DNA from: an uncultured Candidatus Rokubacteria bacterium
Lineage (GTDB): Bacteria > Methylomirabilota > Methylomirabilia > Rokubacteriales > DASRDR01
Assembly (NCBI GenBank): GCA_963708025.1
Contig: CAVPSB010000014.1
Span: forward strand, 256,001 to 320,000
Direction of reading: 5' to 3'
DNA length: 64,000 nucleotides
Under the pieces are notes generated by a model. That model saw nothing but the letters and a program-made list of their open reading frames with translations, was not told the DNA's origin and ran no database searches. This document shows positions 326 through 54,540 of the stretch, piece by piece. A program made the position numbers and the translations under genes. The number at the start of each line of letters is the position of its first letter. Position 1 is the stretch's first letter.

Positions 326-1481
326 GTGACCACGCTTCCCGCCACCCTCGGCTGGCTCAACCCGACCCGGCTCGTCTACGGGGCCGGCGTGCTCGGCCGG
401 CTGCCCGAGCTGGCCGACGAGGTCGCCGGCGCGACGGCCCCGGTGTTCCTGGTCACGGGACGGAAGAGCCTCCGGGCGAGCGGCGCGCTCCAGCGCGTGC
501 TCGATGGCCTCGGCCCCGGGCGGGTCACGCTGTTCGACGACGTGCCCCCGTTCCCGTCGCCCGACGTCGCCGAGCGGGCGCTGGCCGCCCTGCGGGCGAG
601 CCGCGCCGGGCTGGTGGTCGGGATCGGCGGCGGCAGCGCCCTGGATGTGGCGAAGGCGGCGGCGATCCTGGCCACCCACGACGGTCGCGCGAGCGAGTTC
701 GCGATGGGGCAGGGGATCACCCCGACGCGGATGTTCGAGCGACCGGGGCTTCCCGTGATCGCCGTCGCCCACCACCTCGGGCAGCAGCAGCGAGGTGACG
801 CCGTTCGCCGCGCTGTGGGACATCGAGGCGAAGCGCTCGCTCCACCTGGCCAACCCGCGCCTCTTCCCGGCGGTCGCGCTGGTGGACCCGGAGCTGGCCC
901 TCGGGATGACGGCGGACCTGGCGGCGGTGACCGGGGCGGACGCCTTCACCAGCGCGTTCGAGTCGTACTGGTCACGCGAGGCCGGGCCGATCTCGGACGC
1001 GCTGAACCTGGAGGTGATCCGGCTCTACGCCGCCCACCTCGAGCACTCCTGCCGGGAGGCCGACCGGGAGGCGCGCGCCGCCTGCGCGCTGGCGGCCACG
1101 GTGTCGGGAATCGCCTACAGCAACAGCCGGCCCAACGTCTGCCACGCCGTGTCGAGCCCGCTGACCATCTTCTGGGGCGTCGCCCACGGCCAGGCGGTCG
1201 CCATCACCCTGCCGGCGTTCCTCCGCTGGAACGCACCGGCCATCGCCGACAAGCTCCCGGCACTCTGGCAAGCGCTGGGGGTGGCGGATCTCGACGCGGC
1301 AGCCGATCGTCTCACCCGCCTCCTCGACCGCTGCGGGCTCGCGACGCGCCTGGGCCAGCTCGGGCTCGGCGAGGGTGACGTCGAGACCCTGGTGACCCAC
1401 ATGCGCTGGGACCGCACCGCCGTCCTGCCCCGCCCGCTCGGCCGCGACGACGCCCGCACGCTCTTCCGCGCCCTGCTCTAG
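326..1481 (+). CDS. Iron-containing alcohol dehydrogenase family protein (frameshift near 770)
   Basis: GIGGGSALDVAKA in ORF 326; the continuation VDPEL...DAFTSAFESY...CHAVS...HGQA is in the ORF 795-1481 frame. Confidence 0.85.
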
Positions 1482-3769: not shown

Positions 3770-5384
3770 ATGAGGATCATCATCAAGCGCGCGCTCGCAT
3801 GTGTCGGCCTCGTTCTGGTGGTGCTGGTGATCGGCGGGGTCTTCCAGCCGGTGACCGGACAGCCGGCCGGCGGTGGGAAGACCCTCATCATGGCGCTCGA
3901 ACAGTCGGACGTGAAGACGCTCGACCCGGGCCGGGAGTTCGAGTACGGGGCGGCGTTCGTTTGCCTCAACGCCTACGACACCCTCGTCGCCCACAAGAGC
4001 CCGAAAGACCTCAACACCTTCGTGCCGGTGCTGGCGACCGAGTGGAAGGTCTCGTCGGACGGCAAGGAGTACACGTTCAAGCTCCGGCCGAACGTCAAGC
4101 ACGCGAGCGGCAACCCGTTCACGGCCGAGGACGTGAAGTTCAGTCTGACCCGCCTCAAGACCCTCAAGGGCAACCCGGGCTGGATGATGGATCCGCTCAA
4201 GGAGGTCGTCGTCGTCGACCCGATGACGGTCAAGACCGTCCTCAACGAATCGTTCGCCGACTGGCTGCCGGTGCTCGCGGGCCCGAACTCGGCCATCATG
4301 GACTCGAAGCTCGCCAGGGAGCACGGCGCCAGCGACTCGCCGACCGCGGACAAGGACGACAAGGCCGAGGAATGGCTGAACCAGAACTCGGCGGGCGGTG
4401 GCCCGTTCATCCTCCGGGGCTGGCAGAAGAACAACGTCATCACCATGGAGCGGAACCCCAACTACTGGAAGGGCCCGGCCAAGATCGCGAAGATCGAGAT
4501 CCGTGACGTGCCGTCGCCGGCCACCCAGAAGCTCATGGTCGAGAACGGCGACGTCGACGTGGCCGTCAACATCACGCCGGACCTCACCGCCGCCATGCGC
4601 AGCAACAAGAACGTCAAGGTCCAGATCGGGCAATCGCTCGACAACATGTACATGGGGCTGACGGTGGATCCGGCGCTCCACCCGGAGCTGGCCAAGAAGG
4701 AGGTCCGCCAGGCCATCCGCCACGCGGTCGACCGCGACGGGATCATCAAGCTCACCAACGGCCGCGCGGTCATCGGCCCCGCCGTCTATCCCGATCGGCG
4801 TCCTCGGCCTCGAGACCCAGGCCGACGCCGACCGGCTGAACCCCAAGAACGACCTGAAGCTGGCCAAGGAGCTGCTGGCGAAGGCCGGGGTGCCGAACGG
4901 CTTCAAGTTCCCCCTCAAGTACGGCACCGGCGCCTCGCCGGCCGGCATCACCTACGAGTCGATCGCCCAGAAGATCCAGTCCGACCTGAAGAAGGTCGGG
5001 ATCGAGGTCCAGCTGGTCCCGGTGGAGTTCTCGGTGATGATGACGGCGTACCGGGCCAAGGGCGAGATCGCGGTCATCTCCTACAACCAGCCGGACTACA
5101 TCGGGGCCAGCGACTTCACGGGCCAGATGATCCTCCACACCTGGGCGCCGCGGCTCCGCTTTGACGATCCGAAGGCCAAGGAGATGGCGAAGAAGGCCGA
5201 TGCGGAGCTCGACCAGAAGCGACGGTCGGCGATGTACAAGGAGCTCCTCGCCTACATGGTCGAGAACGGCCCCTACGTCAACCTGGTCCAGGGCAAGGCC
5301 GAGGTCGTCGTGCGGCCGAACATCGAGGGGTACGAGTACTTGCCCCTGGGAGCCGCGCGCATCTACCCGGTCGTCAAGAACTAG
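3770..5384 (+). CDS. ABC peptide/nickel-type substrate-binding protein (frameshift near 4790)
   Basis: TLDP, LATEWKVS-DGKEYTFKLR, GGGPF and VRQAIRHAVDR; C-terminal part in ORF 4890-5384; AGGAGG SD. Confidence 0.88.
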
Positions 5385-12860: not shown

Positions 12861-14705
12861 CTACGAGGGGATGCCGGGCGGCAGGCACAGCACCCGGGTG
12901 TCGGCCTGGCTGGCCGCGACCGCCCGGAACTTCTCCCAGAAGCCCCGGTCGATCGCCTGGATGGCGGGCGGCGTCTGGCTCTGCCGGAACCGGCGGGAGC
13001 GGGCGGGGCCGCCGTTGTAGGCGGCGTAGGTCGCCCGGGCCGCGTCCTCCATCCGCTCCCGGGCCTCGCGAATGCCGTAGCGGATGAGGTGGTGCATCAA
13101 GATCTCGGCTCCGGCGCCGGCGTTGTACGCCGCGTTCCAGCGGAGCTTTTCCGGGCTGAAGAAGCCGCGCCAGATCCGGGCGTTGATCTGCATGAGGCCC
13201 ACGTCTCCGGTAGTGGAGAAGAGGTAGGTGACGGTGTCCCCCTTGCGGACGAACTGGCGCCAGCAGCTCTCCTGCCAGGCGACGGTCTTGACGAGGTGGT
13301 AATAGAGGTCGTCGAACCGCTCGGGCAGACCATCGCCGTCGAGCGAGCGCTCGGCCGCCACGGCGAGCAGGCGCGCTACCGTCGCGCGGTAGGCCCGGAG
13401 CTGGTCGGTGGTCGGCACCCAGCGATCGAGGCGCCGCCCGAGCGCCGCCCACTCGTCGTCGGCGGCCTGCGCGTACGCCGCCCGGGGCCCGGGCCACCAC
13501 CAGCCGCTGCCCGCCGGCTTCCGGCGTGGCCGCCGGGGTGGCGCGTCGGGATCGCGGAACTGAAAGATCTGCCGCAGGGTGGCGTCGGGCAGCTCCGAGT
13601 ACTCGAGAGGATCCCCTGTGTAGGCCGGGGCGAGCAGGCGGGCCAGCCGCCGCAGGCCGTCGGCCGAGATCTCGATTCCCAGGGACGGGGCGGCCGCCTC
13701 GATGGCGGCCAGCGCGTCGCCCCCCGCCAGGAAGGTCGCGAACCGCAGCGCCTGGTTCTCGTCGCCGGTCTGGGCCATGCTGCGGCGGATGATCACGCGC
13801 AGCTGGCTCCAGACGTTCAGGAAGAGCTGGCGCACGGGATCCGTTCCCGTCTGGGGCCCGCGGCCGGCGACGGCCAGGAGCTCGTGACGGCTCGACAGCA
13901 GGAGGTCGAGGAGTTCGCTCCGCGCGGCCGGATCGGCGTTGAACACGCCGAGGTCCTTGATCACGAACACGACGAAGCCGTCCCACTGGTCCAGCGTGGT
14001 CTGCCATCGCTTGAGCTGGGCCGGGGTCAGCGCGGCCTCCGGCGCCCGGGTCACCGGCGGCGCAGCGGGCAGATCGAGCGCCATGGTGACCCTGACCGCG
14101 TCGGGCTCGACGGCGACGGCGACGGGGCGCAGGGTCTGGAGCGCGGCGCCCAGCGGGCCGCCGGGAGCCCCGCCCCCGACCGCGCCGAGGAAGGCCCGGA
14201 TCTCGTCCACCGGGTTGCCGAGGCTGAAGGTGAAGCTCGCCAGCTCCGCCTCCGCCCAGCCCTTCACGGATTCCCAGACGCGGGGGACGACCCCGCTCTG
14301 CTGGCGGTTGGCGTCGTAGAGCTGCGTGTCGAGATCCCGCAGGCGCACCTGCCAGTCGCGGCCGATCTCGGGCCGGGCCAGGATCTCCACCTGGCCGTCC
14401 CAGCCCACCTGGCCCCAGCAGTAGCCGAGCATGCCGAGGGCGGCCCGCACGGACCCCGGGCCGGCGATCAGGAGCCGACCGCCGGCCGGCGTCACGGTCG
14501 GCTGGCGCAGGCCGGCCGTGCGGCAGCCATCGGCCGAGCGCCACAGCACCAGCTCCCCGCCGGTCTCCCGCAGGTGCTTCCGCAGGGCGGCGCGGAGCAG
14601 GTCGTACTCGATCGTCAGCGGGAAGGTGACCTCGACGGCGGCCGCCGGCGCGGCCAGGAGGAGGCCGGCAAGGGCGGCGACGAGGCTCAGTCGGCTGCCG
14701 CGCAT
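12861..14705 (-). CDS. Secreted protein with C-terminal lytic transglycosylase (SLT) domain
   Basis: Signal peptide; AWQES, GLMQIN and AYNGG SLT motifs. Confidence 0.75.
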   Translation of the reverse strand: MRGSRLSLVAALAGLLLAAPAAAVEVTFPLTIEYDLLRAALRKHLRETGGELVLWRSADGCRTAGLRQPTVTPAGGRLLIAGPGSVRAALGMLGYCWGQVGWDGQVEILARPEIGRDWQVRLRDLDTQLYDANRQQSGVVPRVWESVKGWAEAELASFTFSLGNPVDEIRAFLGAVGGGAPGGPLGAALQTLRPVAVAVEPDAVRVTMALDLPAAPPVTRAPEAALTPAQLKRWQTTLDQWDGFVVFVIKDLGVFNADPAARSELLDLLLSSRHELLAVAGRGPQTGTDPVRQLFLNVWSQLRVIIRRSMAQTGDENQALRFATFLAGGDALAAIEAAAPSLGIEISADGLRRLARLLAPAYTGDPLEYSELPDATLRQIFQFRDPDAPPRRPRRKPAGSGWWWPGPRAAYAQAADDEWAALGRRLDRWVPTTDQLRAYRATVARLLAVAAERSLDGDGLPERFDDLYYHLVKTVAWQESCWRQFVRKGDTVTYLFSTTGDVGLMQINARIWRGFFSPEKLRWNAAYNAGAGAEILMHHLIRYGIREARERMEDAARATYAAYNGGPARSRRFRQSQTPPAIQAIDRGFWEKFRAVAASQADTRVLCLPPGIPS

Positions 14706-14706
14706 C

Positions 14707-15249
14707 CTAGCTCCCGGCCCGGACGACGGCCAGCAGCGACTCGACCGACGGCCGGTCGGCGGGGCCGCTCCCGACGTGGTGCACCCGCACGATGCCGTCC
14801 GGGTCGATCAGCACGTCCCCGCCGAGCTGGCTCACGTCGCCGGTGGCGCGCCGGAGCGCCCCGCCGCGCGCCAGGCTCCGCGCGTAGGCCAGCCAGGTCG
14901 CGGGGCCCCAGATGTCCCAGGCGCGCCCCCGGAGCATCCCGTAGGCGGCGTAGAGGACGCGGGACTCGTCCACGACGAGCGGCCAGGCGAGCCGGGTGTC
15001 CTCGACGTAGGCCCGGGCGAGGAACCCCGCCTCGAAGGTCACGACCAGCACCGCGACCGCGAGGCCCTCCAGCACCGCCTCGTGCTGCCGCAACTGCGAC
15101 AGGTGCTCGCGGCACGGCAGTCACCCGAGGTGGCGGTGGAACACGAGGAGCAGCCAGCGCCCCCGGTACCGGTCGAGCGTGTGAGTGTCCCCCCGCGTGT
15201 CGTCGAGCTGGAACTCGACCGCCCGGGTGCCGGTCCGGTCTTTCACCAC
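14707..15249 (-). CDS. AhpC/TSA-like (SelU/SelL-related) redox protein; candidate selenoprotein with in-frame TGA at 15123-15121
   Basis: Continuous frame (M)VKDRTGTRAVEFQLDDTRGDTHTLDRYRGRWLLLVFHRHLG-TGA-LPCREH joins ORF 14707-15093 (QLGGDVLIDPDG, PADRP); the TGA occupies the first Cys position of CxxC. Confidence 0.85.
15085..15120 (-). promoter_or_regulatory. Candidate bacterial SECIS hairpin
   Basis: Directly after the UGA: CUGCCG UGCCGC GAGCAC CUGUCGCAG UU GCGGCAG, with stem UGCCGC/GCGGCA and a GU-containing apex about 20 nt from the UGA. Confidence 0.55.
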
Positions 15250-15320
15250 GCTGCAATTGTACCCCGCGCGGGGACCGATTAGACTCGGGGGGAACGTCCA
15301 TCCGGTCGAAGGGGGTCAGG

Positions 15321-16753
15321 ATGCTCAACAGGAACTACATCGACGGCGAGTGGGTCGAGGGCCCGGACACGAACCGCGACGTCAACCCGTCGAACCTCGA
15401 CGACGTGGTCGGCGAGTACGCCCGCGCCGACGCCGCCCAGGCTCGGGCGGCGATCGCGGCCGCCCGGGCGGCGTTCCCGGGCTGGGCGCGCGGCAACATC
15501 CAGGAGCGGGCCGACCTCCTGGACCGCGTCGGCGACGAGATCCTCCGGCGCCGGGATGAGCTGGGTCGGTTGCTCGCCCGCGAGGAGGGGAAGATCCTCG
15601 CGGACGGGATCGGCGAGGCGGGCCGGGCGGGCTACATCTTCAAGTTCTTCGCGGGCGAGGTCGTGCGCCAGGCCGGCGAGCGGCTGCCGTCGGTGCGCCC
15701 CGGCGTCGACGTCGAGATCACCCGGGAGCCTTTGGGCGTCGTCGGTCTCATCACCCCGTGGAACTTTCCGCTCGCCATCCCGGCCTGGAAGATCGCGCCG
15801 GCCCTGGCCTACGGCAACACGGTGGTCTTCAAGCCGGCCGACCTGGTGCCCGGCAGCGCGTGGGCGCTGACGGACATCCTGGCCCGGGCCGGCGTGCCCA
15901 AGGGCGTCTTCAACCTGGTGATGGGCCGGGGGTCGGCGATCGGCGAGACGATCATCGCGTCGCCCGACGTCGAGGGCATCAGCTTCACCGGCTCGGTGGA
16001 GACCGGGCGGCAGATCGCGCGCAAGGCGGTCGAGCGGCTGGCCCGGGTCCAGCTCGAGATGGGGGGAAGAACCCGCTGGTGGTCCTCGACGACGCGGACC
16101 TCGGCGTGGCGGTGAGCTGCGCGATCAACGGCGCCTTCTTCCAGACCGGGCAGCGCTGCACGGCCTCCAGCCGGCTCATCGTCACCCGCGCGATCCACGA
16201 CCGGTTCGTCGCGGCCATGATCGAGCGCATGAAGGCGCTGAAGGTCGACGACGCCCTCAAGCCGGGGACCGAGATCGGCCCGGTGGTCGACCAGAGCCAG
16301 CTCGACCAGGACCTCCGCTACCTGGAGGTGGGCCAGCAGGAGGGGGCGCGGCTCGCCTGGGGCGGCGAGCGGCTCAAGCGCGAGCGCGAGGGCTACTACC
16401 TGTCCCCGGCCCTCTTCACCGAGACGACCAACGCGATGCGCATCAACCGGGAGGAGATCTTCGGGCCGGTGGCCACCGTGATCCCGGCCAAGGACTACGA
16501 CGAGGCGCTGGCGCTGGCCAACGACACGCCGTTCGGGCTGTCGGCCGGGATCGTGACCGCCTCCCTCAAGCACGCGAGCCACTTCAAGCGGAACGCCCAG
16601 GCAGGCATGGTCATGGTCAACCTGCCCACCGCGGGGGTCGACTACCACGTGCCGTTCGGCGGCCGGAAGGGCTCCAACTACGGCCCGCGCGAGCAGGGCC
16701 GGTACGCGCGGGAGTTCTACACGGTCGTCAAGACGAGCTACGTGGCGCCGTAG
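15321..16753 (+). CDS. Aldehyde dehydrogenase, alpha-ketoglutarate semialdehyde dehydrogenase-like (frameshift at G-run near 16062)
   Basis: ITPWNFP, FTGS, QLEMGG|KNP, GQRCTA, EEIFGP. Confidence 0.92.
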
Positions 16754-35063: not shown

Positions 35064-35543
35064 TCAGCCGGCCACGCGCCCGCGGATCGCGTCGAGGACC
35101 TGGGCGGGGTGCTTGGCGGCGTCGGCGACCCGCTTCCAGTGCTTGCGCACGGTGCCGTCGGGGCCGATCCAGACCGACGACCGGATCACGCCCTTCGTCT
35201 TCTTCCCGTAGAGCACCTTCTCGCCGTAGGCGCCCCAGGCTTCCATGACCTTCCGCTCGGGGTCGGAGAGGAGCGGGAAGGGGAGCGCGAACTTGCTCGC
35301 GAACTTCGCGTGGGAGGCCGGGCTGTCGGCGGAGACTCCCAGGACGACGACCCCGGCCCGCTGGAGATCCTTCCAGAGGTCACGGAAGCCGCACGCTTCC
35401 TTGGTGCAGCCGGGCGTGTCGTCCCGGGGATAGAAGTAGACGACGACGTCCTTGCCCTTGAAGGCCGCGAGCGAGACCGCCTTGCCCGCGGCGTCGGGGA
35501 GCGTGAAGTCGGGCGCCTTCCGGCCTTCCTGGATCGCGGCCAT
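35064..35543 (-). CDS. bcp: Thioredoxin-dependent peroxiredoxin Bcp
   Basis: YFYPRDDTPGCTKEACGFRD. Confidence 0.92.
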   Translation of the reverse strand: MAAIQEGRKAPDFTLPDAAGKAVSLAAFKGKDVVVYFYPRDDTPGCTKEACGFRDLWKDLQRAGVVVLGVSADSPASHAKFASKFALPFPLLSDPERKVMEAWGAYGEKVLYGKKTKGVIRSSVWIGPDGTVRKHWKRVADAAKHPAQVLDAIRGRVAG

Positions 35544-35573
35544 CGGAGCGCTCAATTCGGGACCTCCCGCCCA

Positions 35574-35615
35574 CCCCCCAGCCCCCCTCCCCCTCCCACT
35601 GGGGGGAGGGGGGTG
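35574..35615. repeat. BoxC-like palindrome variant
   Basis: ccccccagcccccctccccc...ggggggagggggg; near-copy at 8276. Confidence 0.65.
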
Positions 35616-35647
35616 TGGGAGAGACCGATCATTTCATTCGCAAGCTC

Positions 35648-35983
35648 TCAGCCCCGGAGCGCGTCGAGGCGCTTCACGAGCTCGGCCTTGGGGACCGCGC
35701 CGACGACGGTGTTGACCACGGCGCCGTCCTTGAAGAAGAGCAGGGTCGGGATCGCCTGGATGCCGAAGCGCGCCGCCAGGGCCGACTGCTCGTCCACGTT
35801 GACCTTGGCGACCAGCACGCCGGCCGGCGCCTCGCGCGCGACCTCCTCGAGGATGGGGGCCATGGCCCGGCACGGTCCACACCAGGGCGCCCAGAAATCC
35901 ACGACCAGGCCGGGCTGGGCGGCCACGGCGTCGAAGAAGGTGGTCTCCGTCAGGGATTCGATGGTCGCGTCGGGGGCGCTCAT
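35648..35983 (-). CDS. trxA: Thioredoxin
   Basis: VDFWAPWCGPC, IPTLLFFKDG; GAGGAG SD. Confidence 0.92.
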   Translation of the reverse strand: MSAPDATIESLTETTFFDAVAAQPGLVVDFWAPWCGPCRAMAPILEEVAREAPAGVLVAKVNVDEQSALAARFGIQAIPTLLFFKDGAVVNTVVGAVPKAELVKRLDALRG

Positions 35984-36183
35984 GTCTGGGCTCTCCTCGT
36001 CTCCGAGTGTCCGGCCCGTCAGGCCGATCGGGTGTCGTCCGGTGCTGCCCTTGGGATGCGGCCGGGGTCGCCGCCGATTCAACGGGTGCCCCCCGGGGGG
36101 CGGCGCGCGGCCTGTGGTACTCTGGGCTCCGGCGGCCTGGCCGCCCCGAACCGCTCATCCACCATCCGCAAGAGGAGGGATCT

Positions 36184-43127: not shown

Positions 43128-43892
43128 TCAGGCGTCGGCGAAGGCGGTGAGCGTTTCCGGCGACAGCTCGCCGGCCGAGTCGCGGTCGAGGAAGAGGAAG
43201 CAGCGCGCGTGCCGCCTCAGGATGGATGCGGGCGCCCGCGGCGCGATCTCGTCCTCGAGGGTCATCGTCACCGCGCGCGCTTTCCGTCCCTCCGGGGCGG
43301 TGCAGACGACGCTCCCCGCCTTCATGATCTGGCGGATCGACATCGAGACGGCCCGCCGGGGCACGTCGTCCAGCGACGCGAACGAGCCGCCGCGGAACAG
43401 CTGGCGGCGGTACGTCTCGTCGAGGTCGACCAGGATGAAGGGCGTTTCGGTCTCGAAGTCGGCCGGCGGGTCGTTGAAGGCCAGATGCCCGTTCTCGCCG
43501 ATCCCCAGGAAGGCCACGTCGACCGGGGTGGCGGCGAGGATGCGGTTGAGCCGGGCCAGCTCCCCGGCGAGATCGGGGGCGTCCCCCTGGATGAAGTGGA
43601 CGGTGCCCACGGGCACTCGGCTCGTGAGGCGCTCGCGCAGGTACCGGCGGAGCGACGCCGGGTGGTCGGGCGGGAAGCCGATGTACTCGTCGAGGTGGAA
43701 CAGCGTGGTCCGCGTCCAGTCGATGCCGGGTGCCGCCACCAGGTGGGCGAGGAACGCCATCTGAGACACGCCCGTGGCCGCGACGAAGGCCGCCCGGTCC
43801 CGCGCGGCGATCGCCTCGCGCAGGAGGCGCGCCGCCGTCTCCGCGGCGGCGCGGGCCGCCGCGGCGGGGTCGGGATGGACGGTCACCTTCAT
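43128..43892 (-). CDS. Glucosamine-6-phosphate deaminase family protein
   Basis: ATGVSQ, FHLDEYIG, LGIGENGHLAFNDP, PASILRRH; ATGA overlap. Confidence 0.88.
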   Translation of the reverse strand: MKVTVHPDPAAAARAAAETAARLLREAIAARDRAAFVAATGVSQMAFLAHLVAAPGIDWTRTTLFHLDEYIGFPPDHPASLRRYLRERLTSRVPVGTVHFIQGDAPDLAGELARLNRILAATPVDVAFLGIGENGHLAFNDPPADFETETPFILVDLDETYRRQLFRGGSFASLDDVPRRAVSMSIRQIMKAGSVVCTAPEGRKARAVTMTLEDEIAPRAPASILRRHARCFLFLDRDSAGELSPETLTAFADA

Positions 43893-44809
43893 GGGGCCAG
43901 GAGGCCGAGGTCCTGGAGGTGGCGGCGGATCTGGTCGCGCTCGGGCTCGCGGAAGCGGTGGAAGGGCTCGGCCATGAAGTCGTCGCAGATCCCGAGGAGG
44001 GACAGGGCGCACTTGAGGCCCTTGATGATGGCCGAGCCGTGGTGGCCGACGGCGTAGAGCGTGCCGACGACCTGGACGACCCGCGCGTGGAGCGCGGCGA
44101 CGCGCGCGAGGTCTCGCCGGGCCGCGGCCTCGTACAGCTCGACGTAGAGCCGCGGCATCAGGTTCGCCCCGCCGTTGACGCCGCCGTGGGCGCCGGCGAG
44201 GAGGACCGCCTCGGCCAGGAGATCCTCCGGCCCCACCAGCACGGACCACCCCGGCTGCTCCGCGACCAGCCGGCCCACCTGGTGGAGGTAGCCCATGTCT
44301 CCCGAGCTGTCCTTGATCCCGACGATCTGCGGCAGGTCCATGGCGCGCCGCAGGGTGTCGAGGGCGAACGGCACCTTGGTCAGGCTCGGCATGTTGTAGA
44401 GGAACACCGGCAGCGGCAGCTCGCGAACGATGTGCTGGAGGTACTCCCACAGCTCGGGCTGGGCGACCGTGTGGTAGTAGGGCGAGGAGAGGACCACCGC
44501 CTGGGCCCCGGCGTCGGCGGCGTGGGCCGCCAGCCGCACCGACTCGACGAACGCGGTGTCGGTGATCCCGACCAGGACGGGGACCCGGCCCGCCACCTGC
44601 TTGCAGACCCGCTGGACCAGCTCGTAGCGGAGCCGGTAGCCGAGGCTTGCCGCCTCGCCGCTGGTGCCCAGGATGAAGAGGCCGGCGATGCCACCGCCCA
44701 GCACGTGCTCGAGGAGCCGCTCGAGCCCGGCCACGTCCAGCTCGTCGCGGGCGGAGAGCGGCGTGATCATGGGTGGCACGATGCCGCGCAGGGGACGGGC
44801 CAGGCTCAT
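43889..44809 (-). CDS. DHDPS/NAL-family aldolase
   Basis: GIVPPMITP, GTSGE, LYNMP, GIKDSSGD. Confidence 0.9.
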   Translation of the reverse strand: MSLARPLRGIVPPMITPLSARDELDVAGLERLLEHVLGGGIAGLFILGTSGEAASLGYRLRYELVQRVCKQVAGRVPVLVGITDTAFVESVRLAAHAADAGAQAVVLSSPYYHTVAQPELWEYLQHIVRELPLPVFLYNMPSLTKVPFALDTLRRAMDLPQIVGIKDSSGDMGYLHQVGRLVAEQPGWSVLVGPEDLLAEAVLLAGAHGGVNGGANLMPRLYVELYEAAARRDLARVAALHARVVQVVGTLYAVGHHGSAIIKGLKCALSLLGICDDFMAEPFHRFREPERDQIRRHLQDLGLLAP

Positions 44810-44930
44810 CGACGCGGGGATCCGGGCCGGCCGACCATGGGGAGAGCATAGCACGCGGTTGCGCGGGCGAGCGCCGTCGTGCGATGGTGAAGGCCGCGCG
44901 CTCACCGGGCTCCAGAGGAGAAGCCAACCC

Positions 44931-45365
44931 ATGCTGAAGGGCATCGACCCGCTGCTCGCCCCGGAGCTACTCCACGCGCTGGCCGCGATGGGCCACGGCG
45001 ACGAGCTGGCGGTCGTCGACGCGAACTTCCCGGCGGTCTCGGTGGCCCGCCGCCTCGTCCGGCTCGACGGCGTCCCGGCGCCGCGGGCGCTCCAGGCGGT
45101 CCTCTCGCTCCTGCCCCTCGACACCTTCACCGACACGCCGGCCGCCGTCATGGCCGTGGTGGGGGACCCCGCGGCGGTCCCGCCGCCGGTGCGCGAGTTC
45201 CAGCCGATCGTGGACGCCGCCGCCGGGCGCCCGGTGCGCCTGGTGGCGCTCGAGCGCTTCGCCTTCTACGAGCGGGCGCGGGCGGCCTTCGCGGTCGTTG
45301 CCACCGGGGATACGCGGGCCTACGGCAACATCCTGGTCACGAAGGGCGTGGTCGCCTCGGGATGA
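44931..45365 (+). CDS. fucU: RbsD/FucU family mutarotase
   Basis: MLKGI...MGHGDELAVVDANFP, ERFAFYERA, YGNILVTKGV. Confidence 0.88.
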   Translation: MLKGIDPLLAPELLHALAAMGHGDELAVVDANFPAVSVARRLVRLDGVPAPRALQAVLSLLPLDTFTDTPAAVMAVVGDPAAVPPPVREFQPIVDAAAGRPVRLVALERFAFYERARAAFAVVATGDTRAYGNILVTKGVVASG

Positions 45366-46381
45366 CGATGGAGCCCGGCGCGCGGCGGAGGCTCGGGAAG
45401 TCGGCGGTCGAGGTGACCCGGATGGGGTTCGGCGGCGCCCCGCTCGGCAACCTCTTCAACCCGGTCGCCGCCGACGCGGCCCGGCAGGCGATCGACGGCG
45501 CCTACGACCGCGGCCTCCGCTACTTCGACACCGCGCCGCTCTACGGCCACGGGCTGAGCGAGCGGCGGCTGGGCGAGGCGCTCCGGAGCCGGCCGCGCGA
45601 GAGCTTCGTCCTCTCGACGAAGGTCGGACGCGTGCTCGAGCCGGGGACGCCGCCGGCCGGGGCCTACGTCGAGCTGCCGTCCCTCGTGCCGCGGTTCGAC
45701 TACAGCGAGGCGGGTGCGCTCCGCTCGGTGGAGGAGAGCCTCGGCCGCCTCGGGCTCGACCGGGTGGACGTCCTCTACATCCACGACATCGACGCCTTCA
45801 CTCACGGCGCCGAGGGCGCTCCCGCCCGCTTCCGCGAGGCGATGTCGGGCGCCTACCGGGCGATCGAGCGGCTGCGGCGCGAAGGGCGGGTGCGGGCGAT
45901 CGGCGTCGGCGTCAACGAGTGGGAGGCCTGCCAGCGCGCGGCCGAGGCCGCCGACTTCGACTGCTTCCTGCTGGCCGGGCGCTACACGCTGCTGGAGCAG
46001 GAGGCGCTGGAATCCTTCCTGCCGCTCTGCGAGCGTCGCGGGATCGGCGTCGTGATCGGCGGCCCGCTCAACTCCGGTATCCTGGCCACCGGCCCCGTTC
46101 CCGGCGCGACCTACAACTACCGGCCGGCGCCGCCGGCCATCCTCGATCGCGCCCGGCGCCTCGAGCGCGTGTGCGCGAGCCACGGCGTGCCACTGGCGGC
46201 CGCCGCGCTCCAGTTCCCGCTCGCCCACCCGGCGGTCGCGTGCGTGATCCCCGGGGCCCGGTCGGTGGGCGAGGTCGAGCAGAACGTGGCGCTGCTGGCG
46301 CGGCCGCTGCCGGCGGCCCTGTGGCGGGACCTGAAGGCCGAGGGCCTGGTGCGCGCGGACGCGCCGACCCCGGCCGGGTAG
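45362..46381 (+). CDS. Aldo/keto reductase, D-threo-aldose (L-fucose) dehydrogenase-like
   Basis: GFGGAPLGNLF, FDTAPLYGHGLSE, LSTKVGR, LLAGRYTLL. Confidence 0.88.
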   Translation: MTMEPGARRRLGKSAVEVTRMGFGGAPLGNLFNPVAADAARQAIDGAYDRGLRYFDTAPLYGHGLSERRLGEALRSRPRESFVLSTKVGRVLEPGTPPAGAYVELPSLVPRFDYSEAGALRSVEESLGRLGLDRVDVLYIHDIDAFTHGAEGAPARFREAMSGAYRAIERLRREGRVRAIGVGVNEWEACQRAAEAADFDCFLLAGRYTLLEQEALESFLPLCERRGIGVVIGGPLNSGILATGPVPGATYNYRPAPPAILDRARRLERVCASHGVPLAAAALQFPLAHPAVACVIPGARSVGEVEQNVALLARPLPAALWRDLKAEGLVRADAPTPAG

Positions 46382-46527
46382 GGGCGGGGCCGATGAGCGT
46401 CGCATCGCGTCGTCGTTCGGACGGCCTTCGGCCTTTGGGGTCGTCGCCCATCCTCGGCGTATGCTGCATACGCCTGCGGTGGGCGACTCCCTGCGTCCTA
46501 GCGCTGCTCGCTCCTCGGCCCCGCCCC
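46381..46527. mobile_element. MITE-like structured repeat, short copy
   Basis: Terminal IRs ggggcggggccgatgagcg / cgctcctcggccccgcccc; homologous to 11776-12050. Confidence 0.7.
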
Positions 46528-46581
46528 AAGAACTTGACTCATCCGTCATGACCCTGACCCCCGAAGGACTCTAGGATCTGC

Positions 46582-47451
46582 ATGGCGGGTCCCGGCGATA
46601 CGCGGCGCATCGACGCCCACCAGCACTTCTGGCGCCTGAGCCGGGGCGACTACGGCTGGATCACCCCCGACCTCCGCCCCATCCACCACGACTTCGGCCC
46701 GGCCGACCTGGCCCCGCTCCTGGCGCGGGCCGGGATCGGCGCGACGATCCTCGTCCAGGCCGCACCGACGGTCACCGAGACCCGGTTCCTGCTCCACACG
46801 GCGGGAGCGACGAGCTTCGTCGCGGGCGTGGTCGGCTGGGTGGACATGGCGGCGCCCGAGGCGCCGGAGACGATGGCCGGGCTGGCCCGGGACCCCTACC
46901 TCCGCGGGATCCGGCCGATGATCCACGACATCGCGGACCCCGACTGGATGCTGGGCCGGGGGCTCGATCCGGCGTTTCGCGCGCTGATCGAGCTGGGGCT
47001 CGTGTTCGACGCCCTGGTCCGGCCGGTCCACCTGGCGAACCTCCGGGTGCTGCTCGGCCGCTACCCCGACCTCCGGGTCGTGATCGACCACGCGGCCAAG
47101 CCCGACATCGCGCGCTGGGGCCACTCCCCCGCGGCGCGGGCGACCTGGGCGGCGGCCATGGCGGATCTCGCGTGCTCGACCGGCGCCGCGTGCAAGCTCT
47201 CGGGGCTGGTCACCGAGGCGGTGCCGGGCTGGAGCGCGGACGACCTCCGGCCGTACGTGGACCACCTGCTGGAGTGCTTCGGTCCCGACCGGCTGCTGTG
47301 GGGGAGCGACTGGCCGGTGGTCGACCTCGCCGGCGGCCACGCCGCGTGGTGGGACGCGTCGCAGGCCTGCCTCGCCGGGCTGGGCGCGAACGACCGGACG
47401 AAGATCCTCGGCGGCACCGCCGCGCGGGTGTACGGGCTCCCGGAGCGGTGA
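46582..47451 (+). CDS. Amidohydrolase, L-fuconolactonase-like
   Basis: IDAHQHFW, ILVQA, IDHAAKP, CKLSGL, WGSDWPV. Confidence 0.88.
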   Translation: MAGPGDTRRIDAHQHFWRLSRGDYGWITPDLRPIHHDFGPADLAPLLARAGIGATILVQAAPTVTETRFLLHTAGATSFVAGVVGWVDMAAPEAPETMAGLARDPYLRGIRPMIHDIADPDWMLGRGLDPAFRALIELGLVFDALVRPVHLANLRVLLGRYPDLRVVIDHAAKPDIARWGHSPAARATWAAAMADLACSTGAACKLSGLVTEAVPGWSADDLRPYVDHLLECFGPDRLLWGSDWPVVDLAGGHAAWWDASQACLAGLGANDRTKILGGTAARVYGLPER

Positions 47452-47619
47452 GCAGTGATGAAGTCTCGCTTGGGATCCCAGACCGCGATGGATCGGTTGT
47501 CCGGCTCTTCGAGGTCGCGTACGCTGGAGCTGGTGATCGCTCGTCGGATCTCTCGCGCCGCGCTCCGGTCGCGGGTCGTCCGGGCGAGCGCCGAGCAGTT
47601 CATCAGCCAAGGAGGATGT

Positions 47620-48024
47620 ATGTCGAACGTAGCGCGACTCGCAGTGCTTGCCGTGACGGTGCTCGTGATGGTCCCCGGCCTGGTGAGCGCGGCCGAAGTG
47701 ATGGTGAATCTCCAGCCCCAGAATAATTCCGGGGAGTCGGGGACCGCCACGTTGACGGACACTGCCGACGGCAAGGCCAAGGTGACGGTCAACGTGACCG
47801 GGCAGCCGGCGGGCAGCCAGCCGATGCACATCCACAAGGGAACCTGCGCGAGCCTCGATCCGAAGCCGGCGTTCCCGCTCCCGGCCCTGACCGGAGGCAA
47901 GTCCGAAGCCACCGTCAACGTCACGGTGGACGCGCTCCAGAAGGAGAAGTACGCGATCAACGGCCACAAGTCGGCGCAGGAGGCTTCGGTGTACGTGTTC
48001 TGCGGCGACATCCCGGCGAAGTAG
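47620..48024 (+). CDS. Small secreted protein, CHRD/Cu-Zn SOD-like
   Basis: Signal peptide; QNNSGESGTATL, QPMHIHKGTC, INGHKS, CGDI; AAGGAGG SD. Confidence 0.7.
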   Translation: MSNVARLAVLAVTVLVMVPGLVSAAEVMVNLQPQNNSGESGTATLTDTADGKAKVTVNVTGQPAGSQPMHIHKGTCASLDPKPAFPLPALTGGKSEATVNVTVDALQKEKYAINGHKSAQEASVYVFCGDIPAK

Positions 48025-49447: not shown

Positions 49448-49843
49448 TCAGCGTCCGGCGCTGGAGCCGGCACGATAGGCCCGCCAGCCGCCGTGGGCGG
49501 AGATGTCCCGGTGGAGGCCCTCGGCCAGCTCGCGCGGGTAGAGGATGCCCGGGACCTCCCGGCCGTCGGCGAGGCGGATCGGCCCCCGATACAGCCCGGG
49601 CGGCTCGCCGGCCTCGACGCGCCGCCACACCTCGTCGGGCACCCGGTAGAGCTCGCCGGCCACCGACACGCCGCCCGAGGCCACCTCGAACATGCCGGGG
49701 TGGCGGTCGTCGATGGAGTAGAGGCGGTAGACCGGCGCCGTCCACGCCTCGCCCAGGAACTCGGCCCCCTCGAGGTTGGCGTGGAGCGCGAGCCCGCGCA
49801 TGAGGGTGCCGTTGACGAAGAGCTCGGACGCCCCGCCGGTCAG
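49448..49843 (-). CDS. Gamma-glutamylcyclotransferase-like / allophanate hydrolase C-terminal-like domain protein
   Basis: LFVNGTLMRGLALH, TAPVYRLY, GELY, EPPGL, DISAHGGWRAY; start uncertain (CTG overlapping the upstream TGA). Confidence 0.75.
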   Translation of the reverse strand: MTGGASELFVNGTLMRGLALHANLEGAEFLGEAWTAPVYRLYSIDDRHPGMFEVASGGVSVAGELYRVPDEVWRRVEAGEPPGLYRGPIRLADGREVPGILYPRELAEGLHRDISAHGGWRAYRAGSSAGR

Positions 49844-51417
49844 CGGCGGCCCAGCGGCGGCGCGGCCGCCGGAACCGGTTTCCCGGCCGGCTCCAGCCGG
49901 GCGAAGCCCCAGCAGATGGCCGCCAGCAGCAGGTAGCCGAGGGCGACCCCCGCCGACTCTCCGATCCCCAGCTTGGCGCCGTGGATGAAGCCGAAGTAAG
50001 ACAGCACGGCGCCAGCCAGCCCGTAGATGGCGGCGCGATTGAAGTCCCGGTCGATGATGAAGGCGGCCACCGCGCCCAGGATCATGCCGGCCAGGATCGC
50101 CCCGCCGCCGAGGAGCTCCATGCCGTGGTAGACGACCCCGGCTCCGCCGAGGGCGGCCAGGCCCACCTTGGCGGCCGAGGTGCCGGCGGCGTTCAGCGCG
50201 CCGTCCACCTGGGTCTGGGCCCAGGACGCGAGGTTGGGGATCAGGGCCAGGATGACCGCCGGCGCGTGCTCGCGCGGCGTGGCCTGGAAGGCCTGGGCGC
50301 CGATCACCACGCCGATGTAGAGGAGGATGGGCAGGATCGCCACCAGGGGGATCACGGCCAGGAGCAGGGCGACCAGGCCCAGGAAGCACACCAGCCCGAC
50401 GCAGACCCCGGTCGCCAGCGAGTAGCCGATCCGCCCGCCGACCGACTTCCAGCCGGGGTGGCCGATGTAGACGGCGGGCGGGAAGGGGCTGCCGAGGAGG
50501 GAGCCGACCACCGCGCCGATGCCGTCGGCGAGGAGGATCTTCCGCAGGCTGTAGCTGTCCCCGGCCGCCTCCGCGCTCTCGACGTTGTTCATGCCCTCGG
50601 TGAAGTTGTAGATGCCGAGCGGGATCGCGGTGACCAGGAGGGGGCCGATGTCGGCAAGCCCCGCGAAGACGTCGGCGGACGGGTAGGGCAGCCGCAGGCC
50701 GGCCTGGGCGATGGCCTTGCCGACCGCGGTCGCCTGCATGACGCCGCTCCAGCCGAGCAGCGTGGTGATCCAACCGACGGCGGTGCCGATGATGACCGCG
50801 GCGAGGCCGCCGGGCACGTTGCCGGGGAGCCGCACGCCGGCCATCCAGCTCACCATGATGATGGCGAGCGAGATGAAGGCGATCCACGGCACCTCCCAGC
50901 TCTGGAAGGCCGGCCGCATCGAGATGAAGGTGATCGAGATGCCGGCCAGCGTCCCCAGCATGGCCGCCCGCGGGGTGTGCTTGCGGATGGCCGGCCCCAC
51001 GAAGGCGCCGAGGAGGATGATGACGCCGATCACGAAGCACCAGGCGAGCCCGGCCTGCCAGGCGGCCACGGGGTTGCCGGTCCTGATGACGATGGGCAGC
51101 ATGATGAGGAACACCACGATGAACATGTGGGGCACGCTCGGCCCGTACGGCATCGCGGTGACGGTGTCGCGACGCTCGCGCTTGGCGAGCTGCCAGGCCA
51201 GGTACGCGTAGTAGAGGTTGCCGAGCGGCAGCGCGATGCCCAGCGCCGGGATGATGCGGCCGAACACGATGTTGTCGGGCAGCTTGACGACCCCGAGCAC
51301 GAGCCCCGTGAGCACGATGACGTTGAGGACGACGTTGGTGAAGAGCCCGAAGAAGGCGTTCCAGTCGCCGGGCACCCACCACCGGACCGGATACTCCGAG
51401 TCAGTCGCGCGCCCCAT
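49840..51417 (-). CDS. NCS2/AzgA-like nucleobase-type permease
   Basis: GDWNAFFGL, TAMPYG, NNVESAEAAGD, VYIGHPGWK; many TM segments; GGAGGAG SD. Confidence 0.85.
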   Translation of the reverse strand: MGRATDSEYPVRWWVPGDWNAFFGLFTNVVLNVIVLTGLVLGVVKLPDNIVFGRIIPALGIALPLGNLYYAYLAWQLAKRERRDTVTAMPYGPSVPHMFIVVFLIMLPIVIRTGNPVAAWQAGLAWCFVIGVIILLGAFVGPAIRKHTPRAAMLGTLAGISITFISMRPAFQSWEVPWIAFISLAIIMVSWMAGVRLPGNVPGGLAAVIIGTAVGWITTLLGWSGVMQATAVGKAIAQAGLRLPYPSADVFAGLADIGPLLVTAIPLGIYNFTEGMNNVESAEAAGDSYSLRKILLADGIGAVVGSLLGSPFPPAVYIGHPGWKSVGGRIGYSLATGVCVGLVCFLGLVALLLAVIPLVAILPILLYIGVVIGAQAFQATPREHAPAVILALIPNLASWAQTQVDGALNAAGTSAAKVGLAALGGAGVVYHGMELLGGGAILAGMILGAVAAFIIDRDFNRAAIYGLAGAVLSYFGFIHGAKLGIGESAGVALGYLLLAAICWGFARLEPAGKPVPAAAPPLGRR

Positions 51418-51443
51418 GGTCTCCTCCCGTGTTGAGGCTCCGG

Positions 51444-52142
51444 TCACCGCTTGGCTGCCTTCTTCTTCTTCTCTTTCGCTCCGCCCAGCGCCTCGAGGAA
51501 CCGCCGGGAGTCCGAGACCCAGCCGAAGATGCCGCCCTGGGCCTTGATCATCTCGAGGGCGGCCTCCTGGAACTTCGGGAAGTAGGACCCGACGCAGTCC
51601 GAGAGCACCAGACAGTCGTAGCCGCGGTCGTTGGCCTCCCGGACGGTCGTCTGGACGCAGACCTCGGTCGTCACGCCGCACACGACGAGCTGGCGGACGC
51701 CGCGATTCTTCAAGATGGCGTCGAGGTCGGTGGCGTAGAAGGCGCCCTTCCCCGGCTTGTCCACCACGGGCTCCCCGGGGATCGGGGCCAGCTCCTTGAC
51801 GATGTCGTGTCCGTACTCGCCGCGCACCAGGATGCGGCCCATCGGCCCCTTGTCGCCGATGCCGGTTTTGAGTCGGCCGCGCGCCTTCTTGGCCGGCGGG
51901 CAGTCGGCCAGGTCCGGCCGGTGGCCCTCGCGGGTGTGGAGGACGAGGAGCCCGGCCTGCCGCGCCGCCTCGAGCACACGCCGGGCCGGGGGCACCGCCT
52001 TGCGAAGGAGCGACACGTCGTTGCCCAGCGCTTCGCCGAACCCGCCGGGGTCCACGAAGTCGCGCTGGAAGTCGATCATGACCAGCGCGGCCGTCTTCGG
52101 CGTGAACTCGAACTCGTAGGGCTCCGCCTCGACCGTTGCCAT
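51444..52142 (-). CDS. trtA: Isochorismatase-family hydrolase, triuret hydrolase (TrtA)-type
   Basis: [21 protein letters not shown] and [26 protein letters not shown] and QGGIFG match TrtA-type rather than BiuH-type residues as recalled. Confidence 0.75.
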
Positions 52143-52154
52143 GCGACCCTCCCG

Positions 52155-53090
52155 TCAGGGCACGACGTGCGTGCCGGTCTTGCCCGCCACGGCGGCTTCC
52201 AGGTGCTCGGGCGAGCTGATGACGACTTCGCGGCCGCCGCGCTCGAGGAAGTCGATCGCGGCCTGCATCTTGGGACCCATGCTCCCCGGCGGGAACTCGC
52301 CCGCCTCCAGGTAGCGCCGCGCCTCGGCGGCGGTCAGCCGGTCGAGGAAGGTCTGGCCTGGCTGGCGGAAGCGGATCGCGACCTTCTCGACCCCGGTCGC
52401 CAGGACCAGCACCGGCACGCCGAGCTGGGCGGCCAGGAGCGCGGAGGCGTGGTCCTTGTCCACCACGGCCTCGACCCCCCGGTAGACGCCCGGCTCGTCC
52501 TCGACCACCGGGATGCCGCCGCCCCCGCACGCGATCACGACGAAGCCGGCGTCCAGGAGCGTCCGGATGGCGTCGGCCTCGACGATGCGGAGGGGCCGCG
52601 GGGACGGAACGACGCGGCGGTAGCCCCGGCCGGCGTCCTCGACCATGACCCAGCCGTCGCGCGCCTGGTGGCTCCGCGCCTCCTCCCCGGTGAAGAACGG
52701 GCCGATCGGCTTCCGCGGGCTCGCGAACGCGGGATCGTCCCGGTCGACGACGGTCTGGGTCAGGAGGCAGCTCACGCGGTTGGCGTGGCCCCGACGTCCG
52801 AGCTCGGCGAGGAGGGAGTTCCCGATGATGTAGCCGAGCCCGCCCTGGGAGTCGGCCACGCACATGTCGAGGGACAGCCGCGGCGCGTGCCGGTCGTCCG
52901 AGGCCAGCTCGGAGCGGAGGAGGATGAAGCCGACCTGGGGGCCGTTCCCGTGGGTGACGACGACCCGCCAGCCGGCCTCGACCAGCCCGCCGATCCGCCG
53001 GGCGGTCCCCCGCGCGTTCTCGAACTGCTCGGCGATCGTCCCCCGCTGGCCGTCCTGGATCAGGGCGTTGCCGCCGATCGCGATCATCAC
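52155..53090 (-). CDS. arcC: Carbamate kinase
   Basis: AIGGNAL, THGNGPQVG, KPIGPF, GYRRVVPSP, GGGGIP, VDKD, GSMGPK. Confidence 0.93.
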   Translation of the reverse strand: MMIAIGGNALIQDGQRGTIAEQFENARGTARRIGGLVEAGWRVVVTHGNGPQVGFILLRSELASDDRHAPRLSLDMCVADSQGGLGYIIGNSLLAELGRRGHANRVSCLLTQTVVDRDDPAFASPRKPIGPFFTGEEARSHQARDGWVMVEDAGRGYRRVVPSPRPLRIVEADAIRTLLDAGFVVIACGGGGIPVVEDEPGVYRGVEAVVDKDHASALLAAQLGVPVLVLATGVEKVAIRFRQPGQTFLDRLTAAEARRYLEAGEFPPGSMGPKMQAAIDFLERGGREVVISSPEHLEAAVAGKTGTHVVP

Positions 53091-54540
53091 CGCGCGGGAT
53101 CATCGGCCGTGGATCGCCACCCGACGCCGAGCCGCCGCCCGAGGTCGCGGAGCGCCGCCGTCGAAACAGGGGAGGGGCGCCCGCGCGATGCCGGCGCCGA
53201 CCTGGCCGATGCCGGGCTCGCGGTGGGCGATGCCCGTGTTGATCACCGGGGCCACCCCGCTCTCGACGACCCGGCGGACGTCGATGCCGGTCGGCGACCC
53301 GGCGAAGCCGAGGGTCGGGATCCCGTACTCCGCGTTCCGCCCGAGCGTGATCCCGTACATCGCCCGGGTATAGGCGAGGGCGTCGGCCGGCGTGCCGCCG
53401 ACGAAGTGGACGATCGCCGGCGCTCCCGCCATCGCGAAGCCGCCGATCCCCGCCGTCTCGGTGATGGCGCTGTCGCCGAGGTCGGGGTTGGCGTCGGCCG
53501 GACCGTAGCCCGGGAAGTAGAGGCCATCGATGACCGGCGCCGGCGCGGTGAACCAGGCGTCCCCGGCGCCGGACACGCGGATCCCGAAGTCGACGCCGTT
53601 CCGGGCCATCGCGGTCACCAGCGGTCGAGCCCGCGACCCCGTGGGCGGCGTCGAGCGACGCCTTGCAGGCGGCCATCGAGAGGTTGAGGAAGAAGTGGTT
53701 GTTGCCGAGGATGAAGTCGAAGACCGCGGCCGCCGTGGGGCCGTCCACCGCGCGGGCGAGCGCCGGCGCGAGGGTCCGGGCGAAGAGGGAGGTGGCCGCG
53801 ACGTTCCGGTTGTGGCACTCGTCGCCCATCTGCAGGGCCTGGGCCACGTGGAGCTTCAGGTCGATCGGCCCCGTGCGGAGGGCGTCCCGGAGCGCGGGGC
53901 CGAGAGTGCCGGCGATCCACCGCAGGCGCTCGAGCACCTCGGCGTCGTAGGCGCCGAAGCGGAGGGCGCGGCCGAGCCCCTCGTTCAGGGTCGCGAAGGC
54001 GCGGTTCCCGTGGCTCGCGTTCTCGACGACGACGACGGGCATCGACGGCGACAGGATGCCGGCCATCGGGCCCACCGCGCCGTGGTGGTGGCAGGGCGCG
54101 AAGCGGATCCGGCCGGAGGCCACCAGCGCGGTGGCGGCCTCGGGGTCGGGAGCCCAGCCCTCGTAGAGGATCGCGCCGATGATGGCGCCGCGCACGGGGC
54201 CGCACATGCGGGCCCACTCGATGGGCGGGCCGGCGTGGAGGATCATGCGGTCCTCGAGGCCGGGGACGACCTCGGCGGCGGGGCGGACGTCGAGCAGTAT
54301 CGGGCGGGCCCCGAGGAGCCGGGCCATCGCGGTCCGGTTGGCCTCGGCCACCCGGGCGCCCACGGAATCGTCGGGATCGTCCTCGAGGCGCGCCAGGAGC
54401 AGCCCGAGGTCCCGGTCGCCACCGGCAGGCGGCCGCCAGTCGAGCTGGACGACGGTGGCGCCGTGGGCGCGGGGCGGCTCGGCGAACTGGGCGAGCCCGA
54501 CGTTCAGCGCGTGGACGCCGTCGGGGAAGACGTCAGCCAC
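53087..54540 (-). CDS. DUF1116 protein (YlbE/AllG-like), frameshifts near 53620 and 53155
   Basis: LHAGPP, PCHHHGAVGPMAG, MGDECHNRN, FFLNL, MARNG, DLGDSAITET, INTGIAH. Confidence 0.88.

Follow-up and report, generated by a model that had tools for sequence, protein, structure and literature searches.

Eukaryotic SelL, reportedly described by Shchedrina et al. (2007, PNAS), is said to carry a UxxU motif (U, selenocysteine, Sec; x, any residue) and to form a diselenide. For prokaryotes, selenoprotein tables in two reviews list a peroxiredoxin (Prx)-like thiol:disulfide oxidoreductase family (PF00578) with a UxxC or UxxU motif and an example accession in the Geobacter range (PMC9312934, PMC13188914). 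The Prx-like family also appears in the selenoproteomes of Geobacter, Syntrophus and Desulfotalea in a 2006 survey (PMC1794560), and a survey of ocean metagenomes names three UxxC families, Prx-like 1, 2 and 3, and refers to SelL as a Prx-like protein (PMC2398784). A 2026 review mentions one Methylomirabilota metagenome-assembled genome (MAG) predicted to carry 63 selenoprotein genes (PMC13188914), which makes the use of Sec in this lineage plausible. Here we analysed a stretch of 64,000 nucleotides (hereafter the window) from an uncultured Candidatus Rokubacteria bacterium of the Methylomirabilota, corresponding to positions 256,001 to 320,000 of contig CAVPSB010000014.1 (assembly GCA_963708025.1). 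We conclude that an in-frame TGA codon on its minus strand, at 15123-15121, very probably encodes Sec in a cytoplasmic, SelL-related thioredoxin-fold oxidoreductase of about 180 residues with the motif U43-L-P-C46.

The gene occupies a minus-strand frame that runs from GTG 15249 to a TAG stop at 14707 and that has this TGA as its sole interruption (Table 1). When TGA is translated as U, positions 14710-15249 yield 180 residues with one U, at residue 43, in the context ...RWLLLVFHRHLG-U43-LPCREHLSQLRQ..., the residues from U43 onwards being U43-L-P-C46-REHLSQLRQ. The redox motif is thus FHRHLG-U-LPC, that is, a UxxC motif following RHLG. An earlier note on this DNA had pointed out that the open reading frame (ORF) track reports only the last 128 residues of the protein and that the frame extends upstream through a single TGA; its coordinates and peptide strings check out, and the ORF listing contains the 128-residue piece and a separate N-terminal ORF of 42 codons. 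Both flanks of the TGA look coding in this frame. Over 40 codons on each side, the GC content at third codon positions (GC3) is 0.95 upstream and 1.0 downstream, and that at second codon positions (GC2) is 0.45 and 0.375, respectively. Filtering in-frame stops on GC3 only returned many antisense artefacts, and a GC2 criterion was added; among the in-frame stops scanned in the window, the TGA at 15123-15121 had the lowest GC2 on both flanks. Low GC2 on both flanks was shared by only a few further stops (16751, 20412, 23093 and 52157), which look like the ends of adjacent genes, in our own reading of the set as a whole rather than site by site. An ORF on the plus strand, at 14431-15282, was rejected as an antisense shadow with no family match and weaker codon statistics. 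Translation of the selenoprotein gene may start at GTG 15249 (180 residues) or at GTG 15246 (179 residues), and no other start codon occurs upstream of GTG 15249 up to the next in-frame stop. A promoter and terminator scan around the gene found neither, the consensus scan giving no full promoter. A -10-like hexamer, TACAAT, is located at 15256-15261 (minus strand), 6 nt upstream of the GTG start, and no Shine-Dalgarno-like run was found at the usual distance before this start; the mRNA could be leaderless.

Homologues with TGA or Cys at the U43 column, which the earlier note had named as a check on its proposal, were both found. Relatives were sought by scanning the loci of a single genome for each GTDB species; 268 were confirmed, and the best 80 of them were used for all locus counts. 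At the U43 column, 78 of these 80 loci have TGA, and the other two, L017 and L027, both of which are from Phycisphaerae, have TGT (Cys); a second pattern match in locus L071 (TAA at 1661) was spurious and was ignored. At least eight phylum-level groups are named among the 80 loci, which include Geobacter, Desulfuromonadaceae, Desulfobulbaceae, Syntrophobacteraceae, Deferrimicrobium, Myxococcota, Planctomycetota, Verrucomicrobiae, Acidobacteria, Limnocylindria, Hydrogenedentota and Gamma-/Proteobacteria. The window gene and the 78 TGA loci together form the Sec-form set (n = 79). Within this set the residues W, F, R, H and L at positions -11, -6, -4, -3 and -2 from the TGA are each present in all 79 sequences and are encoded by 1 to 6 synonymous codons; this combination of invariant residues with varied synonymous codons upstream indicates protein-level purifying selection across the TGA. 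Downstream, the base next to the TGA is C in 73 of the 79 sequences, according to the Leu codon counts. C46 is Cys in 79 of 79 sequences, and its conservation is 90% or more in the alignment of 56 sequences used for structural modelling (A3).

The same column divides the proteins in the databases. Among the 120 closest entries, 110 begin after the U column, which bears out the expected truncation by gene callers, while five have C and five have W at this position. The fragment records among them, like the database entry for the window gene itself, comprise about 114-152 residues and are devoid of the UxxC motif; entry P0002, for example, has 128 residues and 99% identity over 71% of the query. 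An exhaustive HMMER search gave 2096 matches at E <= 1e-3 and 332 at E <= 1e-10, and the 150 best cluster representatives were taken. Of these representatives, 88 begin after the U column and 53 have C there, the remainder having S (five), A, W or G (one each) or being without a BLAST alignment (one). The Cys homologues carry RHLGCxxC, in agreement with the earlier suggestion that Sec stands in place of the first Cys of RHxGCxxC. As judged from these alignments, a column occupied by TGA or Cys is the classical signature of a Sec/Cys pair.

Downstream of the UGA, the 79 genes share an RNA hairpin that has the properties of a bacterial selenocysteine insertion sequence (bSECIS). The bSECIS model as given in a recent review comprises a loop of 3-9 nt with a G in the first two loop positions, an upper stem of 4-16 bp, a UGA-to-loop distance of 16-37 nt and a minimum free energy (MFE) of -7.5 kcal/mol or lower (PMC13188914). 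The hairpin of the window gene falls within each of these limits: it begins 18 nt past the UGA and has a 7-bp stem, the 4-nt loop AGUU with G in second position, a UGA-to-loop spacing of 25 nt and an energy of -9.9 kcal/mol (z -4.44), which none of 200 shuffled sequences equalled. Individual folding of 81 sequences returned a recurrent hairpin at 21-38 nt from the U of UGA. When the 79 sequences were folded together with RNAalifold, using an ungapped alignment (A2) that also served for pair counting, the consensus consisted of exactly the hairpin at 15102-15085 (columns 28-34 and 39-45) and nothing else. Paired cells make up 95.1% of this hairpin, compared with 76.4 ± 1.3% in shuffled alignments, and none of 500 shuffles reached the observed value; sliding the 3' partner by 1 to 3 columns reduced the paired cells to 20-65%. 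Changes on both sides of a pair were counted in 96 cells, versus 38.3 in shuffles. Compensatory changes occur in four of the seven pairs, as in CG/AU at columns 28-45, CG/GC at 30-43 and AU/UG/CG/UA/GC at 31-42. Two of the seven pairs are invariant, and in 21 of 78 distinct sequences the outermost pair does not form.

Since the hairpin lies within coding sequence, we also determined synonymous variation over 76 codon columns, from -30 to +45 relative to the TGA. Only three multi-codon columns had zero synonymous variation, namely +8 (ACG, 35/35), +9 (CAG, 78/78) and +10 (TTG, 79/79). These columns, which encode Thr, Gln and Leu, correspond to the loop together with the pairs that close it; at the other Leu columns, four to six codons are in use. 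In the two Cys-form loci the corresponding arms are AUUACGC and GCGCGAG, with two mismatches, -3.0 kcal/mol and z -0.53, and this decay of the stem appears consistent with lost constraint in sequences that have Cys. The hairpin is not the one that the earlier note had described. That GC-rich fold, which directly abuts the UGA and pairs CUGCCG with CGGCAG, was no better than shuffled sequences (z -0.79 over 71 nt, with 37 of 200 shuffles as good; z -1.03 over 44 nt), and RNAalifold does not recover it in the consensus of the relatives; it was therefore rejected in favour of the conserved hairpin at 15102-15085.

With the TGA translated, the protein matches the NCBIfam model NF040769, "SelL-related redox protein", with 192 bits against a cutoff of 120, residues 9-175 covering positions 2-172 of the 173 in the profile; a truncated piece of 137 residues on its own reaches 142.9 bits. 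The Pfam model AhpC-TSA matches residues 7-155, across the TGA (2.7e-17, 63.3 bits), AhpC-TSA_2 (PF13911) scores 41.4 bits against a gathering cutoff of 27 (2.1e-10), and Redoxin matches as well. The equivalog models for PrxQ, PrxU, AhpC and Tpx, which have cutoffs of 140-272 bits, gave no more than 20-24 bits. When the protein is aligned by HMMER to the archaeal Prx 2ywn, U43 falls opposite the Prx Thr and C46 opposite the peroxidatic Cys, and U43 would therefore be the first residue of a CxxC-type dithiol motif, with Sec in first position, rather than part of a Prx TxxC or TxxU motif. The canonical peroxiredoxin signature PxxxT/SxxC, or its TxxU form, is absent from the protein, which has no Pro four residues before U43. 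As judged by its profile scores and motif, the protein, which the earlier note had described as AhpC/TSA-like, belongs to the CxxC-type SelL-related or Prx-like (PRXL2-like) group and not to the canonical AhpC-type peroxiredoxins. NF040769 most probably corresponds to the Prx-like thiol:disulfide oxidoreductase family of the literature, although the phrase "SelL-related redox protein" was not found in the literature searched.

An AlphaFold2 model, run on the 56-sequence alignment A3, had a predicted local distance difference test score (pLDDT) of 96.1 and a predicted template modelling score (pTM) of 0.92. In this model, strand 32-37 leads to U43, which is followed by helix 44-55, and U43 thus occupies the canonical nucleophile position of thioredoxin-fold CxxC enzymes, at the N-terminus of the first helix. 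The best fold match in the PDB is the human prostamide/prostaglandin F synthase PRXL2B (E 1.8e-11; template modelling (TM) scores 0.77/0.84; root-mean-square deviation 1.8 Å over 167 columns), followed by peroxiredoxins of the BCP/PrxQ type and ResA. PRXL2B is also the best sequence match in the PDB (9us9 and 9usa, E 1.9e-4), its CxxC being aligned to UxxC. Residues F37, R39, C/U43, C46, D94, Y100 and Q141 are at least 90% conserved across the diverse family. The pair W89-P90, just before strand 91-93, is conserved to at least 90% in close relatives, and its position suggests that it forms the cis-Pro loop.

We infer that Sec is actually inserted in the present organism, and the following mechanism is proposed on the basis of established bacterial Sec biology for the decoding step, and of the fold, the motif and the nearest characterised relatives for catalysis. 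By analogy, a complex of Sec-tRNASec, SelB and GTP would be drawn by the apical part of the AGUU hairpin and would recode the UGA, 25 nt upstream, at the A site. In the folded enzyme, the exposed selenolate of U43, modelled at the N-terminus of helix 44-55, would attack an oxidised substrate, which may be a disulfide, a sulfenate or a peroxide-type compound. A selenenylsulfide between U43 and C46 would form next, and a thioredoxin-type reductant would then re-reduce the enzyme. The nearest characterised relative catalyses endoperoxide reduction, and the next nearest reduce hydroperoxides or disulfides.

Other explanations for the TGA were considered. A variant genetic code with TGA as a sense codon was rejected: the 39 coding-like ORFs in the window end in TGA (26) or TAG (13) and never in TAA, and TGA being the commonest ordinary stop excludes its genome-wide reassignment and leaves site-specific recoding. 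An ancestral TGC or TGT Cys codon might have turned into TGA in a pseudogene or through a base-call error, leaving the gene broken, and the apparent frameshift at a G-run in the neighbouring aldehyde dehydrogenase (ALDH) gene, with two further candidate breaks, shows that errors or decay occur in the window. These suspected errors are indels, however, not substitutions. Moreover, 78 of 80 independent loci, drawn from many phyla, share this TGA, database proteins with 84-96% identity are cut at the same place, the window's own SECIS hairpin is intact and significant, and the coding statistics are undiminished on both flanks, all of which makes a broken gene very improbable. Termination at the UGA would produce a peptide of 42 residues and a separate protein of 128 residues from TTG 15093, the latter without a redox motif; this would match the output of ORF and gene finders, and UGA is a normal stop in this organism. 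We consider it very improbable, because a single Pfam/NCBIfam domain spans the UGA, and because all 79 Sec-form sequences conserve the 42 upstream codons at the protein level and in this frame. In addition, strand 32-37 and both catalytic residues of what is modelled as one compact fold would be missing from the 128-residue piece, and the truncated database proteins start anywhere between query residues 44 and 68, as expected of arbitrary choices by gene callers.

The full-length protein could also be made without Sec, if the UGA were read as Trp or Cys by a near-cognate or suppressor tRNA, or as Cys from Cys-tRNASec under selenium limitation. UGA followed by C is a leaky context in Escherichia coli, and the five entries with W at the column among the 120 closest database proteins reflect that some pipelines read Trp here. 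We infer that these W entries are artefacts of gene callers that use a table with TGA as Trp. Homologues with a sense codon have Cys at this column and never Trp (53 C, 5 S, 1 A and 1 G among the representatives), the lone W belonging to P0185, which has W at the columns of both U43 and C46, and simple read-through would not need a conserved, covarying hairpin at SECIS distance. Decoding of the UGA as a standard amino acid is accordingly given very little weight.

The reading of this TGA as a Sec codon has its own weak points. In the 64-kb window, no tRNA genes were found, tRNA-Sec included, and selA, selB and selD were not detected at E <= 1e-12 among 139 ORFs, which had been selected by GC3 from the 333 stop-to-stop ORFs of the window; the lack of sel genes in a 64-kb piece is uninformative. 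At least one window gene, the ALDH gene, has an apparent frameshift (near 16062-16068), there are two more candidates, and assembly errors or gene decay may affect the window sequence. The Cys-form control for the SECIS hairpin consists of only two closely related loci, and no Rfam family matched at the gathering score. No conserved partner gene was found around the 80 loci, the largest real neighbour cluster being present in eight of them, and the reviews, in their tables, grade the Prx-like family as a "predicted" selenoprotein (PMC9312934, PMC13188914). A selenoprotein of 180 residues, as proposed in the earlier note, nevertheless agrees with the TGA column shared among relatives, the Cys homologues, the covarying SECIS hairpin and the otherwise normal use of TGA as a stop.

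Table 1. Features of the selenoprotein gene, with positions in the window.
Feature	Position	Strand	Remarks
Full selenoprotein coding sequence	14707..15249	minus	180 codons + TAG stop 14709-14707; open with TGA = U
In-frame TGA, proposed Sec codon U43	15121..15123	minus	Next base C
TGC codon of Cys46, second UxxC residue, proposed resolving Cys	15112..15114	minus	
Conserved SECIS hairpin	15085..15102	minus	5' arm 15102-15096 CUGUCGC, loop 15095-15092 AGUU, 3' arm 15091-15085 GCGGCAG
Truncated 128-residue ORF, TTG start 15093, without redox motif	14707..15093	minus	ORF listing
N-terminal 42-codon ORF, closes at TGA	15121..15249	minus	ORF listing

The selenoprotein gene is followed on the same strand by a gene for a secreted-looking protein of 614 residues (14705-12861), which begins 1 nt after the selenoprotein stop and has a signal-like segment at its N-terminus and an SLT lytic transglycosylase domain at its C-terminus (Pfam SLT, 8.1e-8). 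All four relatives of this protein with an organism name are from Candidatus Rokuibacteriota or Methylomirabilota, with 58-65% identity, and its adjacency to the selenoprotein gene may be kept in close relatives. On the other side, the ALDH gene is divergent from the selenoprotein gene and starts at 15321. Around the 80 loci, the neighbours from the window were found in 0 (SLT), 1 (ALDH) and 1 (short-chain dehydrogenase/reductase, weak) cases, and a neighbour cluster of 54 loci was discarded as an antisense ORF overlapping the selenoprotein gene itself. As the neighbourhood is not conserved, it gives no context clue to the partner, substrate or reductant of the enzyme. About 20 kb away, a Cys-type PrxQ (NF006960, 141.3 bits against 140) adjoins a thioredoxin (TIGR01068, 113.4 against 96.8) at 35067-36154 on the minus strand; it is possible that this pair and the selenoprotein act in the same redox network.

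The window has a GC content of about 72%. In the ALDH gene (15321-16750, plus strand), profile positions 5-254 are matched in one frame and 251-480 in another, with the switch at a run of six G in the conserved LEMGGKNP region, near 16062-16068; this break could be either an assembly indel error or a real frameshift. An iron-containing alcohol dehydrogenase gene at about 365-1478 (plus strand) is split near 760-775, with profile positions 8-139 in ORF 35-1375 and 133-343 in ORF 759-1478. The third candidate frame break is in a gene for a nickel/peptide ABC substrate-binding protein at about 3940-5381 (plus strand), where ORF 3674-5161 matches only positions 25-283 of the 501-position profile and is continued by the high-GC3 ORF 4662-5381. 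Of two catabolic clusters, one is of L-fucose type (43131-48021) and encodes L-fucose mutarotase, L-fucono-1,5-lactonase, a NagB-like deaminase and a DapA-like aldolase. The other, on the minus strand (49451-56242), comprises a biuret-amidohydrolase-like protein, an allophanate-hydrolase-like C-terminus, carbamate kinase (386 bits, cutoff 266) and FdrA (458 bits, cutoff 433). Near the end of the window, an ORF of 974 residues (60788-63709, minus strand) consists of repeat units arranged in tandem, each about 327 nt long, and repeated peptide strings show a spacing of 327 nt on the opposite strand. The ORF has a weak Calx-beta or Na-Ca exchanger-like match (TIGR00845, 2.1e-23) and probably explains the jump of the GC skew to 0.209 in 60001-64000.

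The family, the Sec/Cys dichotomy and the recoding mechanism have all been catalogued before, and the locus opens no new biological question. Its value is rather one of annotation: because the database records are fragments without the catalytic UxxC, the use of Sec in the SelL-related family and in genomes of the Rokubacteria/Methylomirabilota type is under-counted. The alignment of 79 genes also provides a clean, coding-controlled example in which a bacterial SECIS combines compensatory changes with frozen synonymous sites, and from which a family-specific model might be built. A more far-reaching interpretation, which we regard as unlikely when taken as a whole, is that the Sec-containing PRXL2B-like enzyme is a selenium-dependent reductase of (endo)peroxide-type or lipid-derived substrates instead of a general disulfide reductase, and that its SECIS is family-specific and has been carried horizontally with the gene through at least eight phyla, among them a Methylomirabilota lineage whose selenoproteomes are very large. 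If the SECIS were indeed family-specific, with AGUU locked onto the Gln-Leu codons, an RNA element would dictate two residues of a protein.

Among known systems, PRXL2B is the nearest structure by both sequence and fold, and the PF13911 score above its cutoff points the same way; however, the identity is 23%, and PRXL2B is a eukaryotic protein that uses Cys and whose substrate, a prostaglandin endoperoxide, is not expected in the present bacterium. AhpC, PrxQ/BCP and their Sec forms (TxxU) have the same fold and share the Pfam AhpC-TSA match, but in the window gene Sec takes the first position of a CxxC-type motif and not the peroxidatic position of the canonical peroxiredoxins. Eukaryotic SelL is likewise a selenoprotein with a Prx-like thioredoxin fold and a redox motif in the same place. 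It differs in having UxxU and a SECIS in the 3' untranslated region; the motif of the window gene is UxxC, with a TGC codon in second position, and its SECIS is of the bacterial, in-frame type. P0185, a protein of 211 residues in the representative set, reads LRHLG-W-LP-W-REHV, with W at both the U43 and C46 columns; if both W residues represent TGA read as Trp, P0185 would be a bacterial counterpart to the UxxU form of eukaryotic SelL. The bSECIS of the E. coli fdhF type is, like the present hairpin, located in the coding sequence after the UGA, with GU in the loop and within the published ranges of size, spacing and energy; the present family is distinguished by an AGUU loop and closing pairs that are essentially invariant and fixed on Gln-Leu codons. 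The closest agreement is with the Prx-like family of the literature, which has UxxC, an AhpC-TSA domain and matching taxa, many Geobacter, Syntrophus and Desulfobulbaceae loci having the same TGA and the taxa of the 2006 survey being dominant among the 80 loci, and from which the window copy differs in its occurrence in a high-GC (about 72%) genome of the Rokubacteria/Methylomirabilota, a taxon absent from the 80 loci.

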